Below are positions 5,734 to 41,267 of a DNA stretch of 64,000 nt, piece after piece. The number at the start of each line of letters is the position of its first letter. The first letter of the stretch is position 1. A program made the position numbers and the translations under genes. The notes under the pieces were generated by a model, which was not told where the DNA came from, did not search any database, and worked only from the letters and a program-made list of their open reading frames with translations. Source of the DNA: Helicobacteraceae bacterium. Its GTDB lineage: Bacteria > Campylobacterota > Campylobacteria > Campylobacterales > SZUA-545. The DNA is taken from contig JAIRNH010000056.1 in NCBI GenBank assembly GCA_031258155.1, positions 4,872 to 68,871 of the forward strand, written 5' to 3'.

Positions 5734-7104
5734 ATGATCGATTATGAAAAGCTCGCCAAATACTCGGCGCCCGTTCCGCGCTACACAAGCTATCCGACCG
5801 CGCCGGAGTTTAGAGACGATTGGACGCGGCGCGATCTGAGCGAATGTATAGCGCGATCCAATCAAAGCTCCAGAGCGCTTAGCCTATATTTTCATCTGCC
5901 TTTTTGCCGATCGGCGTGTTATTTTTGCGGCTGTAACGTAATATACACAAGTAAAGAGGAGCTAAAAGATCGCTATATCGATTATCTATCGCGCGAGATC
6001 GCGATAATCGGCGATATGCTAGACGTAAAACGCGAGGTTCGGCAGATTCACTTTGGCGGCGGCACCCCGACCTTTTTCAGCGCGGCGCAACTTGCCAAAA
6101 TTATCGGGGTTATCAAATCCGCCTTTCCCAATATAGCAAAGGACGCGGAGTTTGGCGTTGAGATCGATCCTAGATTTTTTACGATCGAGCAGATGGACGT
6201 TTTTGCCCAAAACGGCGTTAATCGCGTCAGCTTCGGCGTTCAGGATTTCGATCCTAGCGTGCAGGAGGCGGTGCATAGAGTTCAGCCTTTCGAGATCGCC
6301 CAAAACGCCGTTGAAATCGCGCGATCGCGCGGCGTTAAAAGCGTTAATATCGATCTGATGTATGGTCTGCCCCGCCAAAACGCGGCGACGTTCGAGCGAA
6401 CCCTAGAGCTAACTTTGCGACTTGCGCCCGATCGCCTCGCGCTATTTAACTACGCGCACGTCCCGTGGCTAAAAAAAACTATGCGCAAGATCGACGAGAG
6501 CGCTATCCCGCCGAGCGCCGAAAAACTAAAGATGTTTCAAATCGCCGCAAAACTATTTGGCGAGAGCGGTTTTGAGATGATCGGTATGGATCACTTCGCA
6601 AAGCCGGACGACGAGCTGTGCGTCGCGCTGAAAGAGGGCAAGCTGCATCGCAACTTTCAGGGCTACACGACGCATAGCGAATGCGATCTGTTTGGTTTCG
6701 GCGTTACGAGCATAAGCGAGGGCGAGGATTTTTACTCGCAGAACGTTCGCGATCTAAGCGGTTACGAAAAGGCTATCGACGGCGGTTTGCCGCCGACGCT
6801 TAGAGGCGTCAGGCTAACCGAAGACGATCGGTTGAGAAAACGGGTTATATTCTCGCTGATGGGTTCGTTTTCGCTTGATTTTGCCGCGATCGAGGCGGAA
6901 TTTGGGATCAATTTTGAACGGTATTTCGCCTCCGATCTAGAGGCGTTAGCGCGGTTAGAGGCGGACGAGTTATTGTCGATCGCAAATCGCCGCATAACCG
7001 TCGGCGATACGGGAAGATTGTTGATCCGCAATATCGTTATGCACTTTGACGATTATCTAAGAAAAACAAGCCCGCAAAATCGCCGTTTTAGTAAAAGCGT
7101 TTAA
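5734..7104 (+). CDS. hemN: oxygen-independent coproporphyrinogen III oxidase / HemN-family radical SAM enzyme
   Basis: 456 aa; PRYTSYPTA N-terminus; CRSACYFCGC radical-SAM CxxxCxxC cluster motif. Confidence 0.9.
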   Translation: MIDYEKLAKYSAPVPRYTSYPTAPEFRDDWTRRDLSECIARSNQSSRALSLYFHLPFCRSACYFCGCNVIYTSKEELKDRYIDYLSREIAIIGDMLDVKREVRQIHFGGGTPTFFSAAQLAKIIGVIKSAFPNIAKDAEFGVEIDPRFFTIEQMDVFAQNGVNRVSFGVQDFDPSVQEAVHRVQPFEIAQNAVEIARSRGVKSVNIDLMYGLPRQNAATFERTLELTLRLAPDRLALFNYAHVPWLKKTMRKIDESAIPPSAEKLKMFQIAAKLFGESGFEMIGMDHFAKPDDELCVALKEGKLHRNFQGYTTHSECDLFGFGVTSISEGEDFYSQNVRDLSGYEKAIDGGLPPTLRGVRLTEDDRLRKRVIFSLMGSFSLDFAAIEAEFGINFERYFASDLEALARLEADELLSIANRRITVGDTGRLLIRNIVMHFDDYLRKTSPQNRRFSKSV

Positions 7105-11771: not shown

Positions 11772-13100
11772 CTAGGCGGCGTTGAACGTAAGGATAAACG
11801 ACGCGCCTTCGCCCTCTTTGCTTTTTAGCCTGATTTCGCCGTTATGAACCATAACGATATGTTTGACTATGGCAAGTCCAAGCCCCGTGCCGCCGGTTTT
11901 TTTGGATCGGGATTTATCCACGCGGTAGAAGCGCTCGAAAACGCGGCTTTGCGCCTCTTTGGGAATGCCTATGCCATTGTCGGCGATCGTTACAAAAATC
12001 TTGCCGTCGTTTTGCGTTATTTCAATCTCAATTAAGCCGTTTGGTTTGTTATATTTAACGGCGTTGTCGATCAGGTTGTAGAACGTTTCAAAGATCATCG
12101 ATCGCGCGCCGAGAATAACGCCGCCGCCTTTTAGCGTTACGCGCACTCCGCGCTCAAGCGACTTTAGCGCCAGCGCGTTTATCGCGTCGCTCGCAATCGC
12201 GTTTAGCTCGATCGGCGCGAACGACTCGGAGCGCTCGCCCTCGTCAAGCTCCGAAATTTTAATAATATCCTCGATCAGCGCGATCAGCCGCGCCGCCTCG
12301 TCTTTGATCTTTGCGTAAATCTCTCGTTTATCGCCCTTTTTTACCATATCGCCGCTAAGCATCTCCGCGTAGCCGTAAATGCTGGTCAGCGGCGTTTTCA
12401 GTTCGTGAGAGACGTTAGCGGAAAACTCGCGGCGCATCTCCACAAGTTTTGTCTTTTCAGCCAACTCCGTCTCGATCTGCTCGCGTTGCGCGGCGATGGT
12501 TTTGGCAAACGGCTCGAACTCTTTGTAGGGCGCCTCGAATTTGGCGTTTATATCCGCTTTGTTAATTGGGTCGATTATCTTTTGCGTAAGCCTGCTAGCC
12601 ATCGCGAAGGAGAGGACGATCATAACCGCCACCACGCCTATTATCGTTGGTATGGCGCTCGCAAACGCGCCAAAAACGCTGGAGGTCGTTATAGCCGCCC
12701 GCAGTATCGCGCCGTCGCTTAGTCTGATCGCGTAGTAGTAGGTCTCCTCTTTGATCGTATCGGAAAATCGTTTGGATTCGCCCGCGCCGTTTTTAAGCGC
12801 GGCGATAACCTCCTCGCGATCGGCGTGATTTGCGAGATCGACGGCGCTTACGAAGGCGTCGAACGCGACCGTTCCGTTTTGCTCTATTAAGCTAATTCGG
12901 ACGCGATCTTTGCCAACCAAGATCGCCTTTTGCGCCGCCGTTTTGGAGTTAGCGCCCACAAACGGCGCCAAGCGCTCTTTAAGCGTCGCGCGCGCCTCGT
13001 TCGCGACATGCGCGTAAAACGCGAGGCAAAGCGCCAACGCGCTCAATGTCAGCGTAACGGCGACCAACGCCGTCATATAGACGTATATCTGTCTTCTCAA
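11772..13100 (-). CDS. phoR: phosphate-regulon sensor histidine kinase
   Basis: 442 aa; two TM segments; H-box SHELKTPLTS; N-box IDNAVKY; G-box GTGLGLAIVK; last gene of the pst-phoU-phoB cluster. Confidence 0.85.
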   Translation of the reverse strand: MRRQIYVYMTALVAVTLTLSALALCLAFYAHVANEARATLKERLAPFVGANSKTAAQKAILVGKDRVRISLIEQNGTVAFDAFVSAVDLANHADREEVIAALKNGAGESKRFSDTIKEETYYYAIRLSDGAILRAAITTSSVFGAFASAIPTIIGVVAVMIVLSFAMASRLTQKIIDPINKADINAKFEAPYKEFEPFAKTIAAQREQIETELAEKTKLVEMRREFSANVSHELKTPLTSIYGYAEMLSGDMVKKGDKREIYAKIKDEAARLIALIEDIIKISELDEGERSESFAPIELNAIASDAINALALKSLERGVRVTLKGGGVILGARSMIFETFYNLIDNAVKYNKPNGLIEIEITQNDGKIFVTIADNGIGIPKEAQSRVFERFYRVDKSRSKKTGGTGLGLAIVKHIVMVHNGEIRLKSKEGEGASFILTFNAA

Positions 13101-13148
13101 TAGTTAGTCTTTGGCGTCTTTGCGACGCGATAGCCTCAAAATTATACG

Positions 13149-13832
13149 CTAATCTTTGATCGTATAGCCTACGTTTCGGACGGTTTTTATCAGATCGCCC
13201 GCGCCCGCGAGCTTATGGCGCAACGATTTAATATGCATATCCACCGTGCGGCTTTCGCCTAGATAATCAAACCCCCACACCTGTTCAAGCAGCATATTTC
13301 GCGTGAGGACGACGCCTTTGGCGCTCATCATATATTTAAGCAGCTCAAACTCCTTGTAGGTTAGCGCGATCTCTTTTTGATTGACGAACACCGCGCGGCG
13401 ATCCGCGCGCAAGGTAATCGCGCCGATTACGACCTCGTCCGCTTTTTCCTCGCCGCATCTTCGTAAAACCGCTTTGATTCGCGCGATCACCTCCAAAACC
13501 GAAAACGGCTTTGCCACATAGTCGTCCGCGCCTAGATCAAGCCCTTTGATCCTGTCCATCTCCGAGCCTCTAGCGGTGAGCATAATAACGGGCGTGGTTT
13601 TGGTCTGTTCGTTAAGTTTTAGTTTTTTCAAAATAGAAATGCCGTCCTCGTCGGGCAGCATAATATCCAGCAAAATCAACGATGGCGTTTGCGTTTCCAG
13701 CGCCCTGCGAAAGGCGATCGCGTCGGCGAAGCCTTCGGCTTTGAAACCTGCGGAGTTCAGCGCGTATAACGCCATTTCGCGGATATTGTCGTCGTCCTCC
13801 ACCATAAAAACGCTTCGCGTTTTTTTGCTCAC
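13149..13832 (-). CDS. phoB: phosphate-regulon response regulator (OmpR/PhoB family)
   Basis: 227 aa; receiver domain (LLDIMLPDEDG); winged-helix output (TVDMHIKSLRHKL...VRNVGYT). Confidence 0.9.
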   Translation of the reverse strand: MSKKTRSVFMVEDDDNIREMALYALNSAGFKAEGFADAIAFRRALETQTPSLILLDIMLPDEDGISILKKLKLNEQTKTTPVIMLTARGSEMDRIKGLDLGADDYVAKPFSVLEVIARIKAVLRRCGEEKADEVVIGAITLRADRRAVFVNQKEIALTYKEFELLKYMMSAKGVVLTRNMLLEQVWGFDYLGESRTVDMHIKSLRHKLAGAGDLIKTVRNVGYTIKD

Positions 13833-33283: not shown

Positions 33284-35238
33284 GCCAAAGCGACCGTTAC
33301 GCGAGCGGTAACTATGCTAACGGAGGCGATAGAGACCTTAACGCGCCCGAATTTTTGCAAAAGATCCGTCCTTTTACGCTCCAGCGGCAGATAGACGCGC
33401 ATGCCCTGAATCAGCGGATCGTCGATAATAATAACCGCCTCTTTGCCTTTGAGCGCCTCGTCCAAAACTTCGCCCTCCAAAGTCAGCCCGATACGCGTCG
33501 AAGCCCATCTAGCGTAAGCGCGATCGGCGTATTGCCGCTCGATCTGCGCGACCTCGGCTTCTAGCAACGTTATAATAGGCGCTAATCGTTGCAGGCTAGA
33601 TAAAATATATCCTCTTTTTTTATCGTCGTTATAGATAATCGTCTTCAAAAGCCTATGCAGCATTAGATCGGAATAGCGGCGAATCGGCGAGGTAAAGTGC
33701 GTATATTTTGCGAATCCAAGCCCAAAATGTCCTATATTGTCGTAGGTGTATTGCGCGCGTTTAAGCGATCTGATCAGCATTCGATCGACCTGTTCGCCCA
33801 CGCCGAGCGCCCTCGCCTCTTTCTGAATCGCCTCGATGGTCGCATGAACGCTTTTGGCTCTTTTTACGACCACGCCGATCTCGCTTAAATCGTCTAATAG
33901 CTCGTCTAAAGAGCGATCGTCGGGCGCCTCGTGCGTGCGAAAAACGCCGAATTGAAAATACTCCGCCGCCGCGCAGTTGGCAAGCAGCATGCACTCCTCG
34001 ATCAACTGGTGCGAGACGGTCTCTTTGGCTTTGATTGTCTTTTGCAGCGACAACTCTTTGTCCAAAACGAGCTTGATTTCGGGATTGGAAAAGCTAAAGC
34101 CCCTTTTAAGCCGTTTCCGTCGAAGCGCGATAATCAGCTCTTTTAGCGGCAAAAGCCACGTTAGTATCTCGCGATCTTGCTCGTCCGCTTTCGCGCCTTC
34201 AAACAGTTCGTCTATGCGATCGTAGTGGTAGCGGCGAATAGACCTTATCACGCTCTCGAATAGCTCGTATTTTTTAACGTTTAAGTTTTCGTCTAGCTCC
34301 AGCTTAAAGGTAAAAGCGAGCCGATCGACACGGGGCTTAAGCGAGCATAGGTTCTCGCTAAGCTCTCTTGGCAACATAGGGATCGATTTGTGCGGCAGAT
34401 AGACGGAAAAACCGCGCTTTCTCGCCTCTTTGTCAATTTCGCCGAACTCCGCCGCATACGCTGAAACGTCGGCGATGGCGACGTATAAAACGCGATTTTT
34501 ATCGTCGTAATAAATCGAATCGTCAAAGTCTTTAGCGTCGATCGGATCGATTGTGATAAACGGCAGATCGCTTAGATCGACGCGGTTTGGGTAGAGCGAT
34601 CTATCTACGCTCTCGCCGTGCGCTTTGGCTTCCATAATTTGCTCGGCGCCGAAGCGATCGGCGCGGTTATAGCGGGATAAAACGATCGCCTCGTCCACCT
34701 TCGGATCGCTTAGAACGCCTAAAACTTCCGCAATCTCGCCGCTTTTGCGATCAAGCGTCAACACCGCGCCCTCTTGAAACTCTTTTAGCGTTCTTTGCTT
34801 AATTCCAATATCTAGCGGCGCGTCGGAGTTAATATCAAATAGCGCGGCTCTATTATGGACGCGCCCGACGTAGGCGATCGGTCTTTCGCCGCTCTCTTCG
34901 GCGATATAGACGATCTTCGCCGCCGCCCTGCCCCGCCTGAAACCGAGCGCTCTCGCGATCGCCAGATCGCGATGAGCGGCGTTTTGGCTGTCGGAGGGTT
35001 GCACGATATAATCGCGCCCTCTTGCCCCTAAAGGGTGGAAATAACCGACGCTTTTGCGCCCTTGTTTTATTAGTTTGGGTTGAAGGTAAAAGCCGACGAG
35101 CAGATCGCTATCAAGCCGTAACAAAGGGCGATCGTCAAGTAGCTTAGCTTTGATTAGCGTATGGGCTAATTTAAGCTCTCGTTTGTCCAGAGCCGAACTA
35201 GGAACTCCCGTTAATAGCTTCTGTAGAAACTCCCTCAT
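33280..35238 (-). CDS. rnr: ribonuclease R (RNB family 3'-5' exoribonuclease)
   Basis: 652 aa; RNB catalytic region (ITIDPIDAKDFDDSIY, HFGLGFAKYTHFTSPIRRYSDL); C-terminal S1-like region. Confidence 0.9.
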   Translation of the reverse strand: MREFLQKLLTGVPSSALDKRELKLAHTLIKAKLLDDRPLLRLDSDLLVGFYLQPKLIKQGRKSVGYFHPLGARGRDYIVQPSDSQNAAHRDLAIARALGFRRGRAAAKIVYIAEESGERPIAYVGRVHNRAALFDINSDAPLDIGIKQRTLKEFQEGAVLTLDRKSGEIAEVLGVLSDPKVDEAIVLSRYNRADRFGAEQIMEAKAHGESVDRSLYPNRVDLSDLPFITIDPIDAKDFDDSIYYDDKNRVLYVAIADVSAYAAEFGEIDKEARKRGFSVYLPHKSIPMLPRELSENLCSLKPRVDRLAFTFKLELDENLNVKKYELFESVIRSIRRYHYDRIDELFEGAKADEQDREILTWLLPLKELIIALRRKRLKRGFSFSNPEIKLVLDKELSLQKTIKAKETVSHQLIEECMLLANCAAAEYFQFGVFRTHEAPDDRSLDELLDDLSEIGVVVKRAKSVHATIEAIQKEARALGVGEQVDRMLIRSLKRAQYTYDNIGHFGLGFAKYTHFTSPIRRYSDLMLHRLLKTIIYNDDKKRGYILSSLQRLAPIITLLEAEVAQIERQYADRAYARWASTRIGLTLEGEVLDEALKGKEAVIIIDDPLIQGMRVYLPLERKRTDLLQKFGRVKVSIASVSIVTARVTVALA

Positions 35239-36035
35239 TTCACAAAGTTGTTGGCGGCTCTTAAAAACGCTTCGCTAGAGCCGCCGTTAAGCGAAACAAG
35301 TTTCGCCGCGGTTTCCGCGCTCGCCGCGGTAATGCCGGAAGGCGTTTCGACCGCCGTTTGCACGACCTGAAGCGCGAAAGCGTAAGGACGCATGGCTTCG
35401 TTCACCGCCGAGGGGTCGATCGATCCGCCAATCGCCTCGACAAGCTCCGACTCGAATAGCCAGTGGCTAAAGACCGCCGCGCTGACCTCTTGATAGCGCG
35501 CGTCCACAAACTCCGTTTCGGCGACGGCGAAACCGTTGATCAACGCTCTATTGGCAAAAGCCTCGCTCTTGCCCGCTTTGACGACCTCCTGCGCTATGAT
35601 GAGCCGTCCCACGCCCGCCAAAAACGACGCGGGGGAGAGTATATCGAGCATATTGCGGCTAACTTGCGAATACCAGCGCACCATAAGCGCGTTTTGAAGC
35701 AACGATAGATCGGCAAATTGCTCCGCCGTGATCCGGTAGGGGGACATATCGATTTTCATCGTGCTTTTAACCGCGCCGGACAGCGCGAAGCCGCGCACCG
35801 TCGCCATGCCAAATAGCGAAACCGCCTGCCCCAACGTTTTGATAGCGCGCGAAAAGCCGTAAAGCGGCGAATTGGCGGCTTTTAGAATGTTTGCCGTGAG
35901 CATAGGATCGTTTTCGATTATCTTCGTTAGGTCAGATATGCTTGAGTTGGGATCGTTGCATATTTGTTGCACTTTGATTACCGACTCCGGCAGAGACGGC
36001 AAGCTCTTAACGCGCGTATAGAGCGCCTCGTTCAT
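35235..36035 (-). CDS. HDOD domain signalling protein
   Basis: 266 aa; LPSLPESVIKVQQICNDP...MLTANILKAANSPLYGF HDOD signature; paralogue of the next gene. Confidence 0.8.
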   Translation of the reverse strand: MNEALYTRVKSLPSLPESVIKVQQICNDPNSSISDLTKIIENDPMLTANILKAANSPLYGFSRAIKTLGQAVSLFGMATVRGFALSGAVKSTMKIDMSPYRITAEQFADLSLLQNALMVRWYSQVSRNMLDILSPASFLAGVGRLIIAQEVVKAGKSEAFANRALINGFAVAETEFVDARYQEVSAAVFSHWLFESELVEAIGGSIDPSAVNEAMRPYAFALQVVQTAVETPSGITAASAETAAKLVSLNGGSSEAFLRAANNFVK

Positions 36036-36116: not shown

Positions 36117-36941
36117 TTAAGATCGCGCGTCGGCGTTATTTCGGTTAGTTAACGTTTTGATCACGTTTTCAAGCGCCTGCGCGCTCATACCGTAATCTTT
36201 CGCGATATTTACCGCGTCCGCCGCGCTTTTCTCGCTTACGCCGTTTGGAAAATCCGCGGCGATCTGCGCCACGCGCAAAACTCTCGCGCGTTCGATAATT
36301 TCGGGAGCGGCGCGCGAAGGATCTTCGGAATGCCTTATTATCTCTACCAGCGCGGGTTCAAAATGCCAATGGGCGAAAATCGCGGCGCTAACCTCCTGAT
36401 AGCTTGATTGCAATATCTCCGCTTCCGCCTTCTCAAGTCCGACCCGCCGCCACAGTTCCTTGAACGGCTCGACCTTGTTTGACTTAACCAGCTCGTTAGC
36501 CATAATAAGCCTACCTATTGGAGAGAGAAACGACGCGGGGGAAAGCTCCTCTAGTTTAGAGCGATCAAATATGCCATACCAGCGGATCGTAAGAGCGTTT
36601 TGTAGTTGGCACAGCTGCACAAACTGATCGGCGTTAATATCGTAAGGAGAAAGATCGGGCGCCAAAGAGTTTCTTACGACGGAGGCGATTGCAAAACCGC
36701 GCACCGTCGCCATGCCAAACAGCGAAACCGCCTGCGAGAGCGTCTTGATCTCTCTTGCGAACCCGTAAAGAGGCGAGTTTGCCGCCTTTAACAGGTTCGC
36801 CGTCAGCATAGGGTCTTCTTCTATAACCTTTGTTAATTCCGCGACGCTTCCAAGCGGGTTGGCGCAGACCTCCTGCACCTTTATCGCCGTCTTTGGAAGC
36901 GGCGGAAGATTTTTAACGCTCTTTACAATTGCATCGTTCAT
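36117..36941 (-). CDS. HDOD domain signalling protein
   Basis: 274 aa; LPPLPKTAIKVQEVCANP...MLTANLLKAANSPLYGF HDOD signature. Confidence 0.8.
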   Translation of the reverse strand: MNDAIVKSVKNLPPLPKTAIKVQEVCANPLGSVAELTKVIEEDPMLTANLLKAANSPLYGFAREIKTLSQAVSLFGMATVRGFAIASVVRNSLAPDLSPYDINADQFVQLCQLQNALTIRWYGIFDRSKLEELSPASFLSPIGRLIMANELVKSNKVEPFKELWRRVGLEKAEAEILQSSYQEVSAAIFAHWHFEPALVEIIRHSEDPSRAAPEIIERARVLRVAQIAADFPNGVSEKSAADAVNIAKDYGMSAQALENVIKTLTNRNNADARS

Positions 36942-38084: not shown

Positions 38085-38894
38085 GTGGGTCAAGTTCTAA
38101 CGATCACAAGCGGCAAAGGCGGGGTAGGCAAAAGCACCGCCGTAGCTAACATCTCCACCGCGATCGCCGAAGCGGATAAAAAAGTCGTCGCGGTCGATTT
38201 CGACATAGGGCTTCGCAATCTGGATATGATCCTAGGGCTTGAAAACCGTATCGTTTACGATTCGATCGACGTAATGGACGGGCGTTGCAAACTTAATCAA
38301 GCGCTAATCGCCGACAAGCGCGTTAAGTCTCTTTTCTTTTTGCCCGCTTCCCAAACGCGCGATAAAAGCGTTTTGGAGTCAAAAAAAGTCGAGACGCTAA
38401 TTAACGAGTTAAAAAAAGAGTTTGATTATGTGATAATCGACTCGCCGGCGGGCATTGAAAGCGGATTTGAACACTCGATCTATCTCGCGGACACGGCGTT
38501 AATAGTATCGACTCCCGAAGTTTCGGCGGTGCGCGACGCGGATCGCGTTATCGGCATTATCGACGCTAAAAGCAAAAAAGCCAAAGAGGGCGGCGAGGTC
38601 GCGAAAAAACTTATTATAAACCGCATTAAACCGGAGATGATCAAAAAAGGTCAAATGCTAAGCCCCGAAGACGTTTTACAGATACTCGCTATCGATCTGA
38701 TCGGACTCGTTCCGGAGGACGAGCTTGTCGTCGTGGCGACAAATACCGGAGAGGTCGTCGTCCGAAACCCCAAATCGGAAAGCGGCGGCGCGTATCGGCG
38801 CATAGCCAAGCGCGTTATCGGCGAAGAGGTCGCTTTTGCTTCGCTAGAGAGCGCCAAAGGGATCGGCGGCTTTATTAAGGGACTGTTCAAATGA
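38085..38894 (+). CDS. minD: septum site-determining ATPase MinD
   Basis: 269 aa; GTG start; deviant Walker [11 protein letters not shown]; C-terminal amphipathic helix. Confidence 0.95.
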
Positions 38895-39133
38895 GTTTTC
38901 TAAGCGATCTGTTCGGTCAAAAAAAAAGCGCGAGCGTCGCAAAAAACCGCTTAATCATTACGCTGGAAAAAGAACGGGCAAACGCTTCGTTTGATTTTAT
39001 TGATCAAATGAAAGAGGAGATACTTTTCGTAATCAAACGCTATATCAACGCGAGCGATATACGGATACTCGCCAAAAAAAATCAACATATCGATCGTCTG
39101 GAGATTGAAATCGACCTAGAAAACGGCAAATGA
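38891..39133 (+). CDS. minE: cell division topological specificity factor MinE
   Basis: 80 aa; N-terminal [11 protein letters not shown] membrane-targeting sequence; ATGA overlap with minD. Confidence 0.85.
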
Positions 39134-40500
39134 AACTCCCCGCGCGCAATAAATATATTCGCGCCGTTCTCGTATCGGCGCCAATCTCTGTTTTCGTCGC
39201 TTTTACGGTGTGGAGCGTTATCGACTATCTAACCTATTTCAGCGGCGGTTACGAACAGAACGTAAAAGAGGAGATTAACGCTTTTGATCGCACCGTGCGC
39301 GGCATTATAAACGAAAACGCGGCGGCGGGCGAGCCTTTAAGCGTAAAACACGCGCTTGATTACATTCAAATTCCGCCGTCGCTCGATCTGATCGTAAGCG
39401 AAGCGACAAGCAAAAACATCATATATTCGCATAGATATAGCGGACGCTGGTTAGACAGGTGTTGCGAAGGTCTATATTTGCGCTCAATAGTTACAAAGAC
39501 AATAGAGAACTACTCTTTTCAATACAGCTATTATATAATCCCAAAATTTTACGCCTCTTTTCTAAGAGCGATCAGTTTTTCTCTGTTGCCGGACTATATT
39601 ACGGATAAATATTTCAGCTTCTCAAAGTGGGCGGACAGTTTTTTCAGCTACTTCTGGGCGAGAAGCGCGGTATATTACGGAATGTTCCTGATTTCGTTCG
39701 TCGCCTTTTTCGCGTGGTCTATTAGAAATTTAAGCTACGACGAACAACGCCAAATCGCCTACGAGCTATTAAGCGAAGAGAGAGAACGGCTAGAGGCGAG
39801 CGCCAGCGAAGTTGAAAGATATAAAACGTCGCTGCTTGAGATAAACAAAATGATCGCGTTAAAACAACAAGAGTTAGAGATAAAGCACGACATTCTAAAG
39901 CGATCTATGAACAAGCGAAACAGCGCTCAGCTTTCAAAATCGATCGACGACGCAACAAAAGAGACGATCTCTCTCAAAAGCGAACGCGGGCGGCTCGAAC
40001 GAGAACTCGCCGCTATTAGCGACGTCCTGATCGAAGAGAGCAAAAATATACAAGATACGCAGATCAGCGCTAGGATTGCGGATATAAAAGTGGAGTTTTC
40101 GGAGCTTTTCGGCTCTAAAATGCCAAACGCTCTGATCGATCAAATATCAGAAGGTTTTTATCTTTACGAAAGAAGCCCTGAATATATATCGCAGATTATG
40201 CACGCATGGTTTAACGGGTTTGATTATTTGGTAAAAAAACTAGCCGAACCGTTCTGGCAGAGAAACAAAAAACATCTCCTGCTTGGCGAGGCGATTAAAA
40301 TAATCCGCAAAATATACGCTCCGCATCAGATTGACTATTACGAGCTAAAAGCCGTCGTAAATATGCGAAACAAATTTTCGCATTTTGAAACGGACGTATT
40401 AACGATAGATAATCTACGATCGCTTAAATCAAGACTGTTTGGTTACAAAAACACCGACGGGCTTTTCTATAAACTAGTCAATGTAAAAAACAAAAAATAA
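39130..40500 (+). CDS. two-TM, coiled-coil protein with C-terminal HEPN-like domain (RNxxxH); function unknown
   Basis: 456 aa; TM at about residues 11-33 and 178-198; heptad-rich region at about 205-320; NMRNKFSHF (R413-x4-H418, nt 40366-40383); overlaps minE stop (ATGA) and dprA start (TAATG); clearly lower G+C than neighbours. Confidence 0.85.
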   Translation: MKLPARNKYIRAVLVSAPISVFVAFTVWSVIDYLTYFSGGYEQNVKEEINAFDRTVRGIINENAAAGEPLSVKHALDYIQIPPSLDLIVSEATSKNIIYSHRYSGRWLDRCCEGLYLRSIVTKTIENYSFQYSYYIIPKFYASFLRAISFSLLPDYITDKYFSFSKWADSFFSYFWARSAVYYGMFLISFVAFFAWSIRNLSYDEQRQIAYELLSEERERLEASASEVERYKTSLLEINKMIALKQQELEIKHDILKRSMNKRNSAQLSKSIDDATKETISLKSERGRLERELAAISDVLIEESKNIQDTQISARIADIKVEFSELFGSKMPNALIDQISEGFYLYERSPEYISQIMHAWFNGFDYLVKKLAEPFWQRNKKHLLLGEAIKIIRKIYAPHQIDYYELKAVVNMRNKFSHFETDVLTIDNLRSLKSRLFGYKNTDGLFYKLVNVKNKK

Positions 40501-41267
40501 TGACTCGCCTAACAGAGATTCCCGCCGCGCTTCAAGCTATAGACAACCCTCCCAAAGCGCTCTACTACGAAGGCGATCTCTCCTTGCTTTCGCGCCCGCT
40601 TGTCGCGATCGTGGGCGCGAGGATAGCGTCAAACTACGCGAAAACTTGGACGAAACGAATCGCCGCCGCGCTTAAAGAGGCGGGCGCGGTCGTGGTAAGC
40701 GGCGGCGCTAACGGCGTGGATAGCGCCGCGCACGAGGCGGCTTTTCCAAACACGATCGCGATTCTAGCCGGTTCGATCGACAACGATAGGCGAAGGCATA
40801 TCGCGCCCGTCAAGCAAAACGCGCTTGTTTTAAGCGAGTTTGAAAAAGAAACCGCGCCTAGAAACTGGAGCTTCGTTCATCGCAATAGGCTAATTACGGG
40901 CATTGCCGCCGTCGTGTGCGTAACGCAAGCCGATCTAAAAAGCGGTTCTAGCGCTAGCTGCAATTTGGCTCTGCGGCAGAAAAAACCGCTCTTTACGCTG
41001 CCGCACCGCTTAGGAGAAAGCGAGGCGACTAACGCGCTATTAGCGAGCGGTAAAGCCAAAGCGATCTGGAGCGAAGAGACGATCTTAAACGCGCTTGGGC
41101 TTCGCGCCGCGCCCAAAGAGAGCGATCCCGTGCTGCTTTTCGCCGCCGATCGCCCTCTTTTTGAAAGCGCGCTCGATAAGTTCGGCGCGATCGTCTATGA
41201 ATACGAGCTTGCGGGGAAAATCGTCGTAAGAGACGGAAGGATCGAGCTTGCCGACGTTAGCTATTGA
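40500..41267 (+). CDS. dprA: DNA processing protein DprA (short form)
   Basis: 255 aa; GGANGVDSAAHEAA Rossmann-like DprA motif. Confidence 0.85.
   Translation: MTRLTEIPAALQAIDNPPKALYYEGDLSLLSRPLVAIVGARIASNYAKTWTKRIAAALKEAGAVVVSGGANGVDSAAHEAAFPNTIAILAGSIDNDRRRHIAPVKQNALVLSEFEKETAPRNWSFVHRNRLITGIAAVVCVTQADLKSGSSASCNLALRQKKPLFTLPHRLGESEATNALLASGKAKAIWSEETILNALGLRAAPKESDPVLLFAADRPLFESALDKFGAIVYEYELAGKIVVRDGRIELADVSY

Follow-up and report, generated by a model that had tools for sequence, protein, structure and literature searches.

A two-transmembrane protein with a probable HEPN domain encoded between minE and dprA in uncultured Helicobacteraceae

Gene X and the domains of its product

The DNA analyzed here (the window, which is the whole stretch of 64,000 nucleotides [nt]) comes from a Helicobacteraceae bacterium (GenBank assembly GCA_031258155.1, contig JAIRNH010000056.1, positions 4,872 to 68,871) and harbors, among genes whose products Pfam names as MinD, MinE, DprA and RuvX, an open reading frame (ORF) that we call gene X. 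Its product, X, is a 456-residue protein that is a 100% match to P0001, deposited at NCBI as [quoted passage not shown] (MAG, metagenome-assembled genome). An initial annotation of this DNA had described X as a protein with two transmembrane (TM) helices, a coiled coil and a C-terminal domain carrying the RNxxxH motif of HEPN ribonucleases (RNases), and our analysis reproduced the ORF, its ATGA and TAATG overlaps with the flanking genes and the position of the RNKFSH hexamer (Table 1). Full-length searches revealed no match of X in Pfam, NCBIfam, PADLOC or the PDB sequences, returning either nothing or coiled-coil noise only.

The C-terminal domain was modeled with AlphaFold as residues 300 to 456, giving a predicted structure with a per-residue confidence (pLDDT) of 90.8 and a predicted template-modeling score (pTM) of 0.86. 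Published descriptions of HEPN domains place the Rx4-6H motif at the end of a helix that runs into a loop, with a polar residue (N, D or H) after the arginine, and add a conserved acidic residue in helix 2, often as Ex3[KR] (PMC3710099). X contains R413-N414-x3-H418, and in the predicted structure this motif ends the helix formed by residues 403 to 417, not the start of the last helix as had been annotated, and runs into the loop before helix 426 to 437. The helix-2 acidic residue has two candidates: D/E365, which is found in seven of seven members (with K369 in five of seven), and E387, found in five of seven. By itself an RNxxxH motif is weak evidence, as it arises in ∼4% of shuffles of X and occurs in 4 of the 53 window ORFs. 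However, R413, N414 and H418 are kept in all nine members of the family described below, down to 25 to 30% identity, so that the conservation of R413 and H418 among homologs, on which the HEPN assignment had been made to depend, is observed. Indeed, a seven-sequence alignment has 18 invariant columns out of 157, and all three residues occupy such columns (p = 0.0013); D427 and R430 are among the other positions of the domain invariant in nine of nine. The domain is also the most constrained part of X, with a ratio of nonsynonymous to synonymous substitution rates (dN/dS) of 0.04 to 0.10.

Three further comparisons name HEPN families. The only Pfam family matched repeatedly was PF18737 (HEPN_MAE_28990), to which five of seven members, P0006 included, aligned in one register across the motif; the scores were 13.8 to 20.5 bits against a gathering threshold of 26.8 (best E = 5.8e-4), and P0004 aligned over positions 71 to 194 of the 211-position profile. 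When the domain model was compared with the PDB using Foldseek, HEPN proteins led the ranking, specifically the HepT toxins 8xdj, 5yep, 6m6w, 6m6u and 7bxo, Las1 (6of3 and 8puw), AF0298 (2hsb) and 1wwp. The template-modeling (TM) scores of these HEPN matches were about 0.36 to 0.60, the best ones 0.48 to 0.60. Thus, the expected structural match is seen in the ranking but not in its significance, the best E-value being 0.49. The same domain found nothing in the viral BFVD library, and with the full-length model coiled-coil matches swamped the output. Finally, we built a HepT profile from eight real HepT/DUF86 genes from plasmids, with a synthetic consensus serving as bait only, and aligned it with the X profile by hhalign. 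A single local alignment resulted (P = 0.0036, probability 9%), which pairs MRNKFSH of X with mRNxlxH of HepT and LGEA of X with the invariant IGEA of HepT at matching spacing. Its score of 23.7 was reached by none of 600 column-shuffled controls (mean ∼12, maximum 20.7). This test is partly circular because HepT was chosen on account of the motif and the Foldseek result. An hhalign comparison with a single Csm6 sequence found nothing, and Pfam scans gave no PF01934 (DUF86) match in X.

By those families' own thresholds, X lies outside DUF86 and PF18737. The similarities to HEPN families are weak but convergent and, together with the fold model and the invariance of R413, N414 and H418, make it likely that the C-terminal domain of X belongs to the HEPN fold, as had been annotated. 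One other hit, a PDB profile match to the CI repressor of phage TP901-1 (E = 0.004), was put down to chance, being confined to a short W-x-x-GFD stretch and without support from any other tool.

Kyte–Doolittle peaks at residues 13 to 31 and 180 to 198 bear out the annotated two-TM layout. Four K/R and no acidic residue precede TM helix 1 (TM1), giving the first 12 residues a charge of +4, and because the N terminus is so strongly positive, the sequence fits a topology with both termini in the cytoplasm and residues 32 to 179 outside it. The model of this periplasmic segment is of moderate to low confidence (pLDDT 41 to 83), and the segment is the fastest-evolving part of X (dN/dS 0.19 to 0.34). 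Searches with its profile gave nothing consistent in Pfam and no convincing PDB match, and hence no recognizable sensor fold. Residues R146, S151, L153, P154, D155, F162 and W167, which precede TM helix 2 (TM2), are invariant in nine of nine members; the SxLPD motif, together with R146, F162 and W167, forms the N-terminal patch with the strongest conservation, and it falls where the model is least confident. In the PDB, the periplasmic profile (residues 32 to 178; 39223–39663) gave only a weak match, to nicotinic acetylcholine receptor alpha subunits (E = 0.02), spanning loop-C "CC" to M1, where the CC...Y...IIP...LLPD arrangement of X resembles the receptor pattern; this is probably a coincidence.

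Beyond TM2, the heptad character of the annotated coiled coil of ∼110 residues was evident, but the region is modeled as two helices, residues 203 to 258 and 262 to 330. Because these helices are broken where the indels of the family cluster, a helical hairpin is, from the model, as likely a form of this stalk as one continuous coiled coil.

Table 1. Features of gene X and its surroundings (positions in the window; residues of X)
Feature	Positions	Strand	Basis or conservation
Gene X, 456 residues	39130..40500	+	ORF; two TM helices and C-terminal HEPN-like domain
TM1, residues 13–31	39166..39222	+	Kyte–Doolittle maximum 2.19; helical in AlphaFold model
Predicted periplasmic alpha/beta segment, residues 32–179 (∼145 residues)	39223..39666	+	Model: helices, then four strands
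Vicinal cysteine pair C111–C112, periplasmic segment	39460..39465	+	Eight of nine family members; absent in P0006
S151-x-L-P-D155 motif just before TM2	39580..39594	+	Invariant in nine of nine members; pLDDT 41–48
TM2, residues 180–198	39667..39723	+	Kyte–Doolittle maximum 1.80
Two long cytoplasmic helices with heptad character, residues 203–258 and 262–330	39736..40119	+	AlphaFold model, alignment, hydropathy
C-terminal all-helical HEPN-like domain, residues about 333–456	40126..40497	+	AlphaFold, Foldseek, PF18737, hhalign with HepT
D365, candidate acidic residue of HEPN "Ex3[KR]"	40222..40224	+	D/E in seven of seven members; K369 in five of seven
G386-E387-A388	40285..40293	+	Aligned by hhalign to invariant IGEA of HepT/DUF86; acidic in five of seven members only
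R413-N414-K-F-S-H418, Rx4H motif with polar residue after R	40366..40383	+	Invariant in nine of nine members
minE, upstream operon neighbor	38891..39133	+	Pfam PF03776, E = 1.6e-12
dprA, downstream operon neighbor	40500..41267	+	Pfam PF02481, E = 4e-48
ATGA, overlap of X start codon with minE stop codon	39130..39133	+	Same in L001, L003, L005, L010 and L011
TAATG, overlap of X stop codon with dprA start codon	40498..40502	+	Not conserved: gaps of 5 nt (L003) and 2 nt (L005)

The X family and the minE–dprA junction

A word-indexed search of 5.8 billion proteins yielded five proteins including the query, all "Helicobacteraceae bacterium" MAG proteins, and the C-terminal profile, run exhaustively with HMMER against 1.84 billion representatives, gave three matches, P0004, P0006 and P0007, of which P0006 and P0007 are new, distant members. 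A genome survey added two further orthologs (loci L010 and L011). The architecture of X is common to nine of nine members, which are known only from uncultured genomes of one MAG project. A word-indexed search with the C-terminal profile (E ≤ 10) returned zero matches, its own members included, and is thus uninformative, apparently a tool artifact. In one member, P0005, TM1 is absent because of the gene call only: the database protein (locus L002, 415 residues) starts at an ATG at position 6001, and an in-frame TTG at L002:5911, overlapping the end of minE, restores TM1 and the conserved N terminus (L002:5911–7248, 445 residues).

Gene X lies between minE and dprA in six of six related species-level MAGs, with protein identities of 45 to 75% that track those of MinE and DprA. 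The nearest outgroup recovered, a Campylobacterales MAG (L013) with a MinD 76% identical, lacks X and has the order ilvC-minD-minE-dprA-ruvX-tatD with minE and dprA 8 nt apart. X therefore represents, on the evidence of synteny, an old insertion into ilvC-minD-minE-dprA-ruvX. This agrees with the annotation of X as an insertion into a conserved operon, a view that had drawn on the HP0330–0334 gene order of Helicobacter pylori; of that order we could confirm just the identity of HP0333 as dprA, which a cited paper gives in its title.

The same data contradict a recent or mobile acquisition; the initial annotation had proposed that X was acquired horizontally. The junction is shared by six species, and for the only unsaturated pair, L011 and L005, X has a synonymous divergence (dS) of 0.233 and a dN/dS of 0.195, matching dprA (0.206 and 0.193) and ruvX (0.233 and 0.184); the values for tatD are 0.324 and 0.149. 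X is under purifying selection (dN/dS about 0.1 to 0.2). By domain, dN/dS in this pair is 0.10 for the HEPN domain and 0.34 for the periplasmic segment, and more distant pairs give 0.04 to 0.06 for the HEPN domain. No integrase or transposase appears on the ORF maps of the seven junction loci, for which no dedicated repeat scan was run. In all seven, X is flanked by minE and dprA with no adjacent MNT-type antitoxin gene, as annotated for the window, and type VI cas genes were not seen.

The composition of X is indeed lower in G+C than that of its surroundings. Its G+C content (GC) of 0.427 compares with a mean of 0.525 (standard deviation 0.028) for 51 long window ORFs (z = −3.45), and its third-position value (GC3) of 0.499 with a mean of 0.614 (standard deviation 0.045; z = −2.56), the lowest rank in both cases. 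Of four G+C counts made by hand in the initial annotation, those of 25, 18 and 36 were reproduced, and the fourth is 37 rather than 38. However, the short minE gene is equally A+T-rich (GC 0.395) and low GC is kept in every X ortholog, so that composition neither dates nor proves a transfer, and we rejected it as a sign of one. In the most divergent species (L002:7245–8382), dprA and ruvX have a GC of 0.39 to 0.40 and are as A+T-rich as X, with ilvC and minD at 0.52 to 0.54; hence X is not alone in its low G+C within that stretch of the operon.

A possible coupling of X to dprA and DNA uptake, inferred earlier from the stop–start overlap, found no support in the comparison beyond operon packing. 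The overlap with the minE stop is conserved, but that with dprA is not (gaps of 2 to 5 nt in other species), and minE and dprA are equally tight where X is absent.

Several observations concern the surroundings of X. The best sigma-70-like promoter match of the 6-kb operon region, TTGAAA-17-GATAAT at 40385–40413 (+; 10 of 12 positions), sits within the 3′ end of X and precedes dprA by 87 nt; matches of this kind are not in excess over shuffles across the region (7 vs. 5.2). Two tandem paralogous genes lie upstream of ilvC and divergent from it (35235–36035 and 36117–36941, − strand), and their orthologs in L003, L004 and L005, which encode an HDOD domain (PF08668), are followed by an RNase R-like gene (RNB). 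In L004/L005 (Iy174_bin57), cas1 and cas2 occur at 11805–13230, ∼4.5 kb downstream of X without adjoining it, and are not conserved across the other loci. At L001:3421–4179, dprA is called as 183 residues, homology to the window DprA begins ∼200 nt upstream, and no ATG is found there; the start codon or the assembly at this site is doubtful. The minE–dprA junction of a Nautiliaceae MAG (L014:6324–7310) holds a different gene, whose 328-residue product combines a TM helix at the N terminus with a coiled coil and a polysaccharide deacetylase domain of divergent sequence (PF04748, E = 1.8e-57); membrane-protein genes have entered this junction more than once. The 64-kb window contains no tRNA gene and no Rfam match.

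P0006 and P0007, the distant members, have no min genes as neighbors. P0006 shares its assembly (JAISOU) with P0004, the copy at the junction, and so, provided that the binning is right, is a paralog. It stands alone in a low-GC stretch of locus L007 (0.35 to 0.37 vs. 0.45 in the flanks), with two DUF488 genes directly upstream that match PDC-M45B (E = 9e-55) and PDC-M45C (E = 2.8e-59). Downstream of P0007 lies a single M45B-like DUF488 gene (E = 1.8e-38), so that the gene order differs between the two loci. The DUF488 pair and P0006 are at L007:6557–7577 and L007:8001–9395, and P0007 and its DUF488 neighbor at L006:409–1707 and L006:1839–2222. The association of P0006 and P0007 with DUF488 genes may, judging from these neighborhoods, be functional. 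PDC-M45 is one of 145 untested "phage defence candidates" from a guilt-by-embedding study (bioRxiv 10.1101/2024.01.29.577857); our literature search found nothing useful on the function of DUF488 or DuOB or on PDC-M45. On three plasmids we found the cassette as DuOB >> DUF488 >> DUF488, beside CBASS, type III CRISPR or SNF2 genes. Upstream of the intact DUF488 pair, L007:5971–6066 encodes an N-terminal remnant (about 35 residues) of PDC-M45A (DuOB, PF22557), so this cassette has apparently lost its A gene; the TM-HEPN paralog lies 423 nt downstream. The notion that P0006 and P0007 replace the A component was rejected, as M45A is DuOB, unrelated to X, and L007 keeps its remnant. On gene content, the X family is to be regarded as a neighbor of the PDC-M45 cassette, not a component.

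The low-GC, defense-type neighborhoods of the standalone relatives are a hint that the X family began as a conflict-system or defense effector. This hint comes from the distant paralogs and not from X itself, as the 64-kb window contains no DUF488 gene, no DuOB gene and no second paralog, and neither X nor P0005 matched PADLOC-DB 2.0. P0006 and P0007 gave weak PADLOC matches to LmuB models (E about 1e-3 to 1e-2) in the coiled-coil stalk region, which we read as noise.

A proposed mechanism and its alternatives

On the anatomy, conservation, selection, phyletic pattern and synteny observed, we give slightly better than even chances to X being a membrane-tethered HEPN endoribonuclease that is metal-independent, gated by oligomerization and switched by a signal. 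We infer this activity and its gating, as well as the kind of signal and the role outlined here. X would reside in the inner membrane with both termini in the cytoplasm, exposing the ∼145-residue domain to the periplasm, and its HEPN domain is predicted to keep every element of the catalytic signature, R-N-x3-H and, upstream of it, an acidic residue. In canonical HEPN RNases, face-to-face dimers build the active site (Csx28 preprint). In the resting state, the stalk of X would keep the HEPN domains of the oligomer apart or misaligned; a periplasmic or membrane cue, passed via TM2 and the stalk, would bring two of them face to face and complete the composite active site. RNA near the membrane would then be cleaved, resulting in slower growth or reshaped gene expression. 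As to its history, gene X entered the minE–dprA junction a single time, in a common ancestor of a small group of uncultured Helicobacteraceae, and has since passed down vertically as a promoter-less operon member.

Several points weigh against this proposal. No measure of HEPN similarity is significant (Pfam 17.7 to 20.5 vs. 26.8 bits, Foldseek E-value 0.49, hhalign probability 9%), and the hhalign target was one picked for its motif. The alignments are shallow (seven to nine sequences from one environment), and the structures are predictions, in which any closeness of R413 and H418 to D365 or E387, like the Foldseek register, is provisional; E387 and K369 are not kept in the two distant members. 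The periplasmic domain yielded no recognizable sensor fold in the Pfam and PDB profile searches, and X has neither a PADLOC match nor a DUF488 partner in the window. Moreover, an unguarded toxic RNase that is cotranslated with housekeeping genes and stably kept would be unusual.

X could instead be a housekeeping-type membrane RNase for localized RNA processing or decay, with the same chemistry as the signal-switched enzyme proposed above but another role. RNase Y, a TM plus coiled-coil endoribonuclease, would be its analog. Stable vertical inheritance in a core operon under constraint like that of dprA, ruvX and tatD fits such a role, as do the lack of an antitoxin and the strong conservation of the catalytic domain. 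Nevertheless, we consider it fairly unlikely, since the family is very narrow (three representatives in 1.84 billion proteins), the close outgroup does without X, the regions around the paralogs are variable and low in GC, the periplasmic domain is fast-evolving and the composition of X is atypical for the genome. That X is instead a recently acquired, mobile, single-gene abortive-infection module would explain why it is the lowest-GC long ORF in the window and is absent from the outgroup, and HEPN signatures are typical of abortive-infection and toxin systems; the distant paralogs beside a candidate defense cassette point the same way. But the timing is already contradicted by six species that share the junction at identities tracking those of MinE and DprA, X has the dS and dN/dS of its neighbors, no integrase or transposase was seen on the ORF maps of the seven junction loci, its low GC is common to all orthologs and to minE, and PADLOC finds no match, which together make this origin very improbable.

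The remaining alternatives concern the domain itself. If the RNxxxH motif were coincidental and the C-terminal domain not HEPN, X could be a lineage-specific envelope or cell-division protein. TM plus coiled-coil architectures are common among division proteins, X is placed after minDE, the Nautiliaceae junction holds a different protein of this kind, and every HEPN similarity is below threshold, with the motif arising by chance in ∼4% of shuffles. Against this stand an invariant motif at the canonical structural position and the agreement of Pfam, Foldseek and hhalign in naming HEPN families, as well as standalone paralogs that are not beside min genes and an outgroup that manages without X; we therefore judge it improbable. 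It also appears quite improbable that X is a genuine HEPN protein without nuclease activity, forming a "face-to-back" pore or scaffold in the manner of Csx28, with R and H used for oligomer contacts or for binding RNA or a ligand. Csx28, a HEPN-like protein of four helices anchored in the membrane, assembles into an octameric pore and depolarizes cells, its motif arginine pointing away from the interface; X, for its part, has a pair of TM helices together with a highly conserved juxtamembrane patch (R146, SxLPD, F162 and W167) that the model leaves unplaced. However, X keeps the complete canonical signature, including the polar asparagine and the upstream acidic residue, whereas the Csx28 motif is described as divergent; a long stalk separates membrane and HEPN domain in X, unlike in Csx28; and no Cas13b is found in the context of X, nor was Csx28 among the Foldseek matches.

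Returning to the signal-switched RNase, a more ambitious version would make X a true bacterial counterpart of the Ire1 principle, in which a two-TM periplasmic sensor controls HEPN dimerization through the stalk and so RNA cleavage. Here, X would have been domesticated from a defense-island effector and would let a cue from the envelope or a phage act on how division (MinDE) and recombination/transformation functions (DprA and RuvX) are expressed or on the fate of their RNA, and its standalone relatives would work with PDC-M45 DUF488 proteins, perhaps on RNA ends left by HEPN. We hold this full scenario to be a speculative and improbable one.

Comparison with known HEPN systems

HepT (DUF86; HepT–MntA, for example, Shewanella SO_3166; 5YEP, 6M6W and 8XDJ) provides the best Foldseek matches to the C-terminal domain of X, although below significance (TM-scores 0.48 to 0.60); both are all-helical, similar in size and, by hhalign, have RNxxxH and GEA at the same spacing. 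X differs in that it has no DUF86 Pfam match and no adjacent MNT antitoxin and that its domain is fused to a module of two TM helices, a periplasmic domain and a stalk. HepT also has a tyrosine two residues after the histidine (Y104; 6m6w is the Y104A mutant and 8xdj the AMPylated HEPN toxin), where X has H418-F-E. PF18737 (HEPN_MAE_28990), with which five of seven members align in one register below threshold, has described members that either neighbor ParB/methylase or ParA genes or carry soluble domains fused at the N terminus, whereas X carries TM segments (PMC3710099). With regard to PDC-M45, P0006 and P0007 adjoin M45B/C-type DUF488 genes, and none of the three proteins that make up the DuOB >> DUF488 >> DUF488 cassette is matched by X or its relatives.

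Membrane-associated bacterial HEPN proteins with possible external sensors, and their analogy to Ire1, were predicted in 2013 by Anantharaman et al. (PMC3710099), in three groups: DUF4145 with a WP-TM domain, Abi2/Swt1 with a TM helix and an external helical domain, and HEPN-2TM-Zn-ribbon. X resembles them as an inner-membrane protein with a cytoplasmic HEPN domain, a possible external sensor and, as proposed here, stimulus-dependent RNA cleavage. Unlike them, it has no DUF4145 or Abi_2 match and follows the order TM helix, alpha/beta periplasmic domain, TM helix, helical stalk, HEPN. By sequence comparison, X belongs to none of the three groups nor to any curated family, and its architecture is distinct. 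Experimental characterization of the 2013 membrane groups was not found in our literature search. The likeness to Ire1/RNase L drawn in the initial annotation thus holds for the working principle, by analogy only, and the idea itself dates from 2013: sensor-driven oligomerization that assembles a composite HEPN site is proposed for X, and Ire1 is likewise a membrane protein, but X has no kinase or pseudokinase Pfam match and Foldseek returned no KEN structure.

Csx28, an accessory of type VI-B2 CRISPR systems, is membrane-anchored and HEPN-like, as X is predicted to be, and is the one such protein studied experimentally in bacteria. It is a small protein that depends on Cas13b; its four-helix bundle makes up an octameric pore, and its divergent motif is noncatalytic. 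X has two TM helices, a periplasmic domain, a stalk and a canonical motif, with no CRISPR partner.

The X family is very rare and comes only from uncultured genomes, its similarities to known families are below threshold and its function is put forward here as a proposal. Within these bounds, X illustrates that a domain of the conflict type can settle permanently in a conserved operon, evolving from then on like its neighbors, and the family has two natural contexts, inside a housekeeping operon and standalone beside a candidate defense cassette. Signal-gated bacterial membrane HEPN RNases were predicted in 2013, we found none characterized, and Csx28, which has been studied, is a pore. The X family is thereby a compact candidate test case for this class: one gene encodes the complete catalytic signature, and sensor, stalk and effector are clearly set apart.

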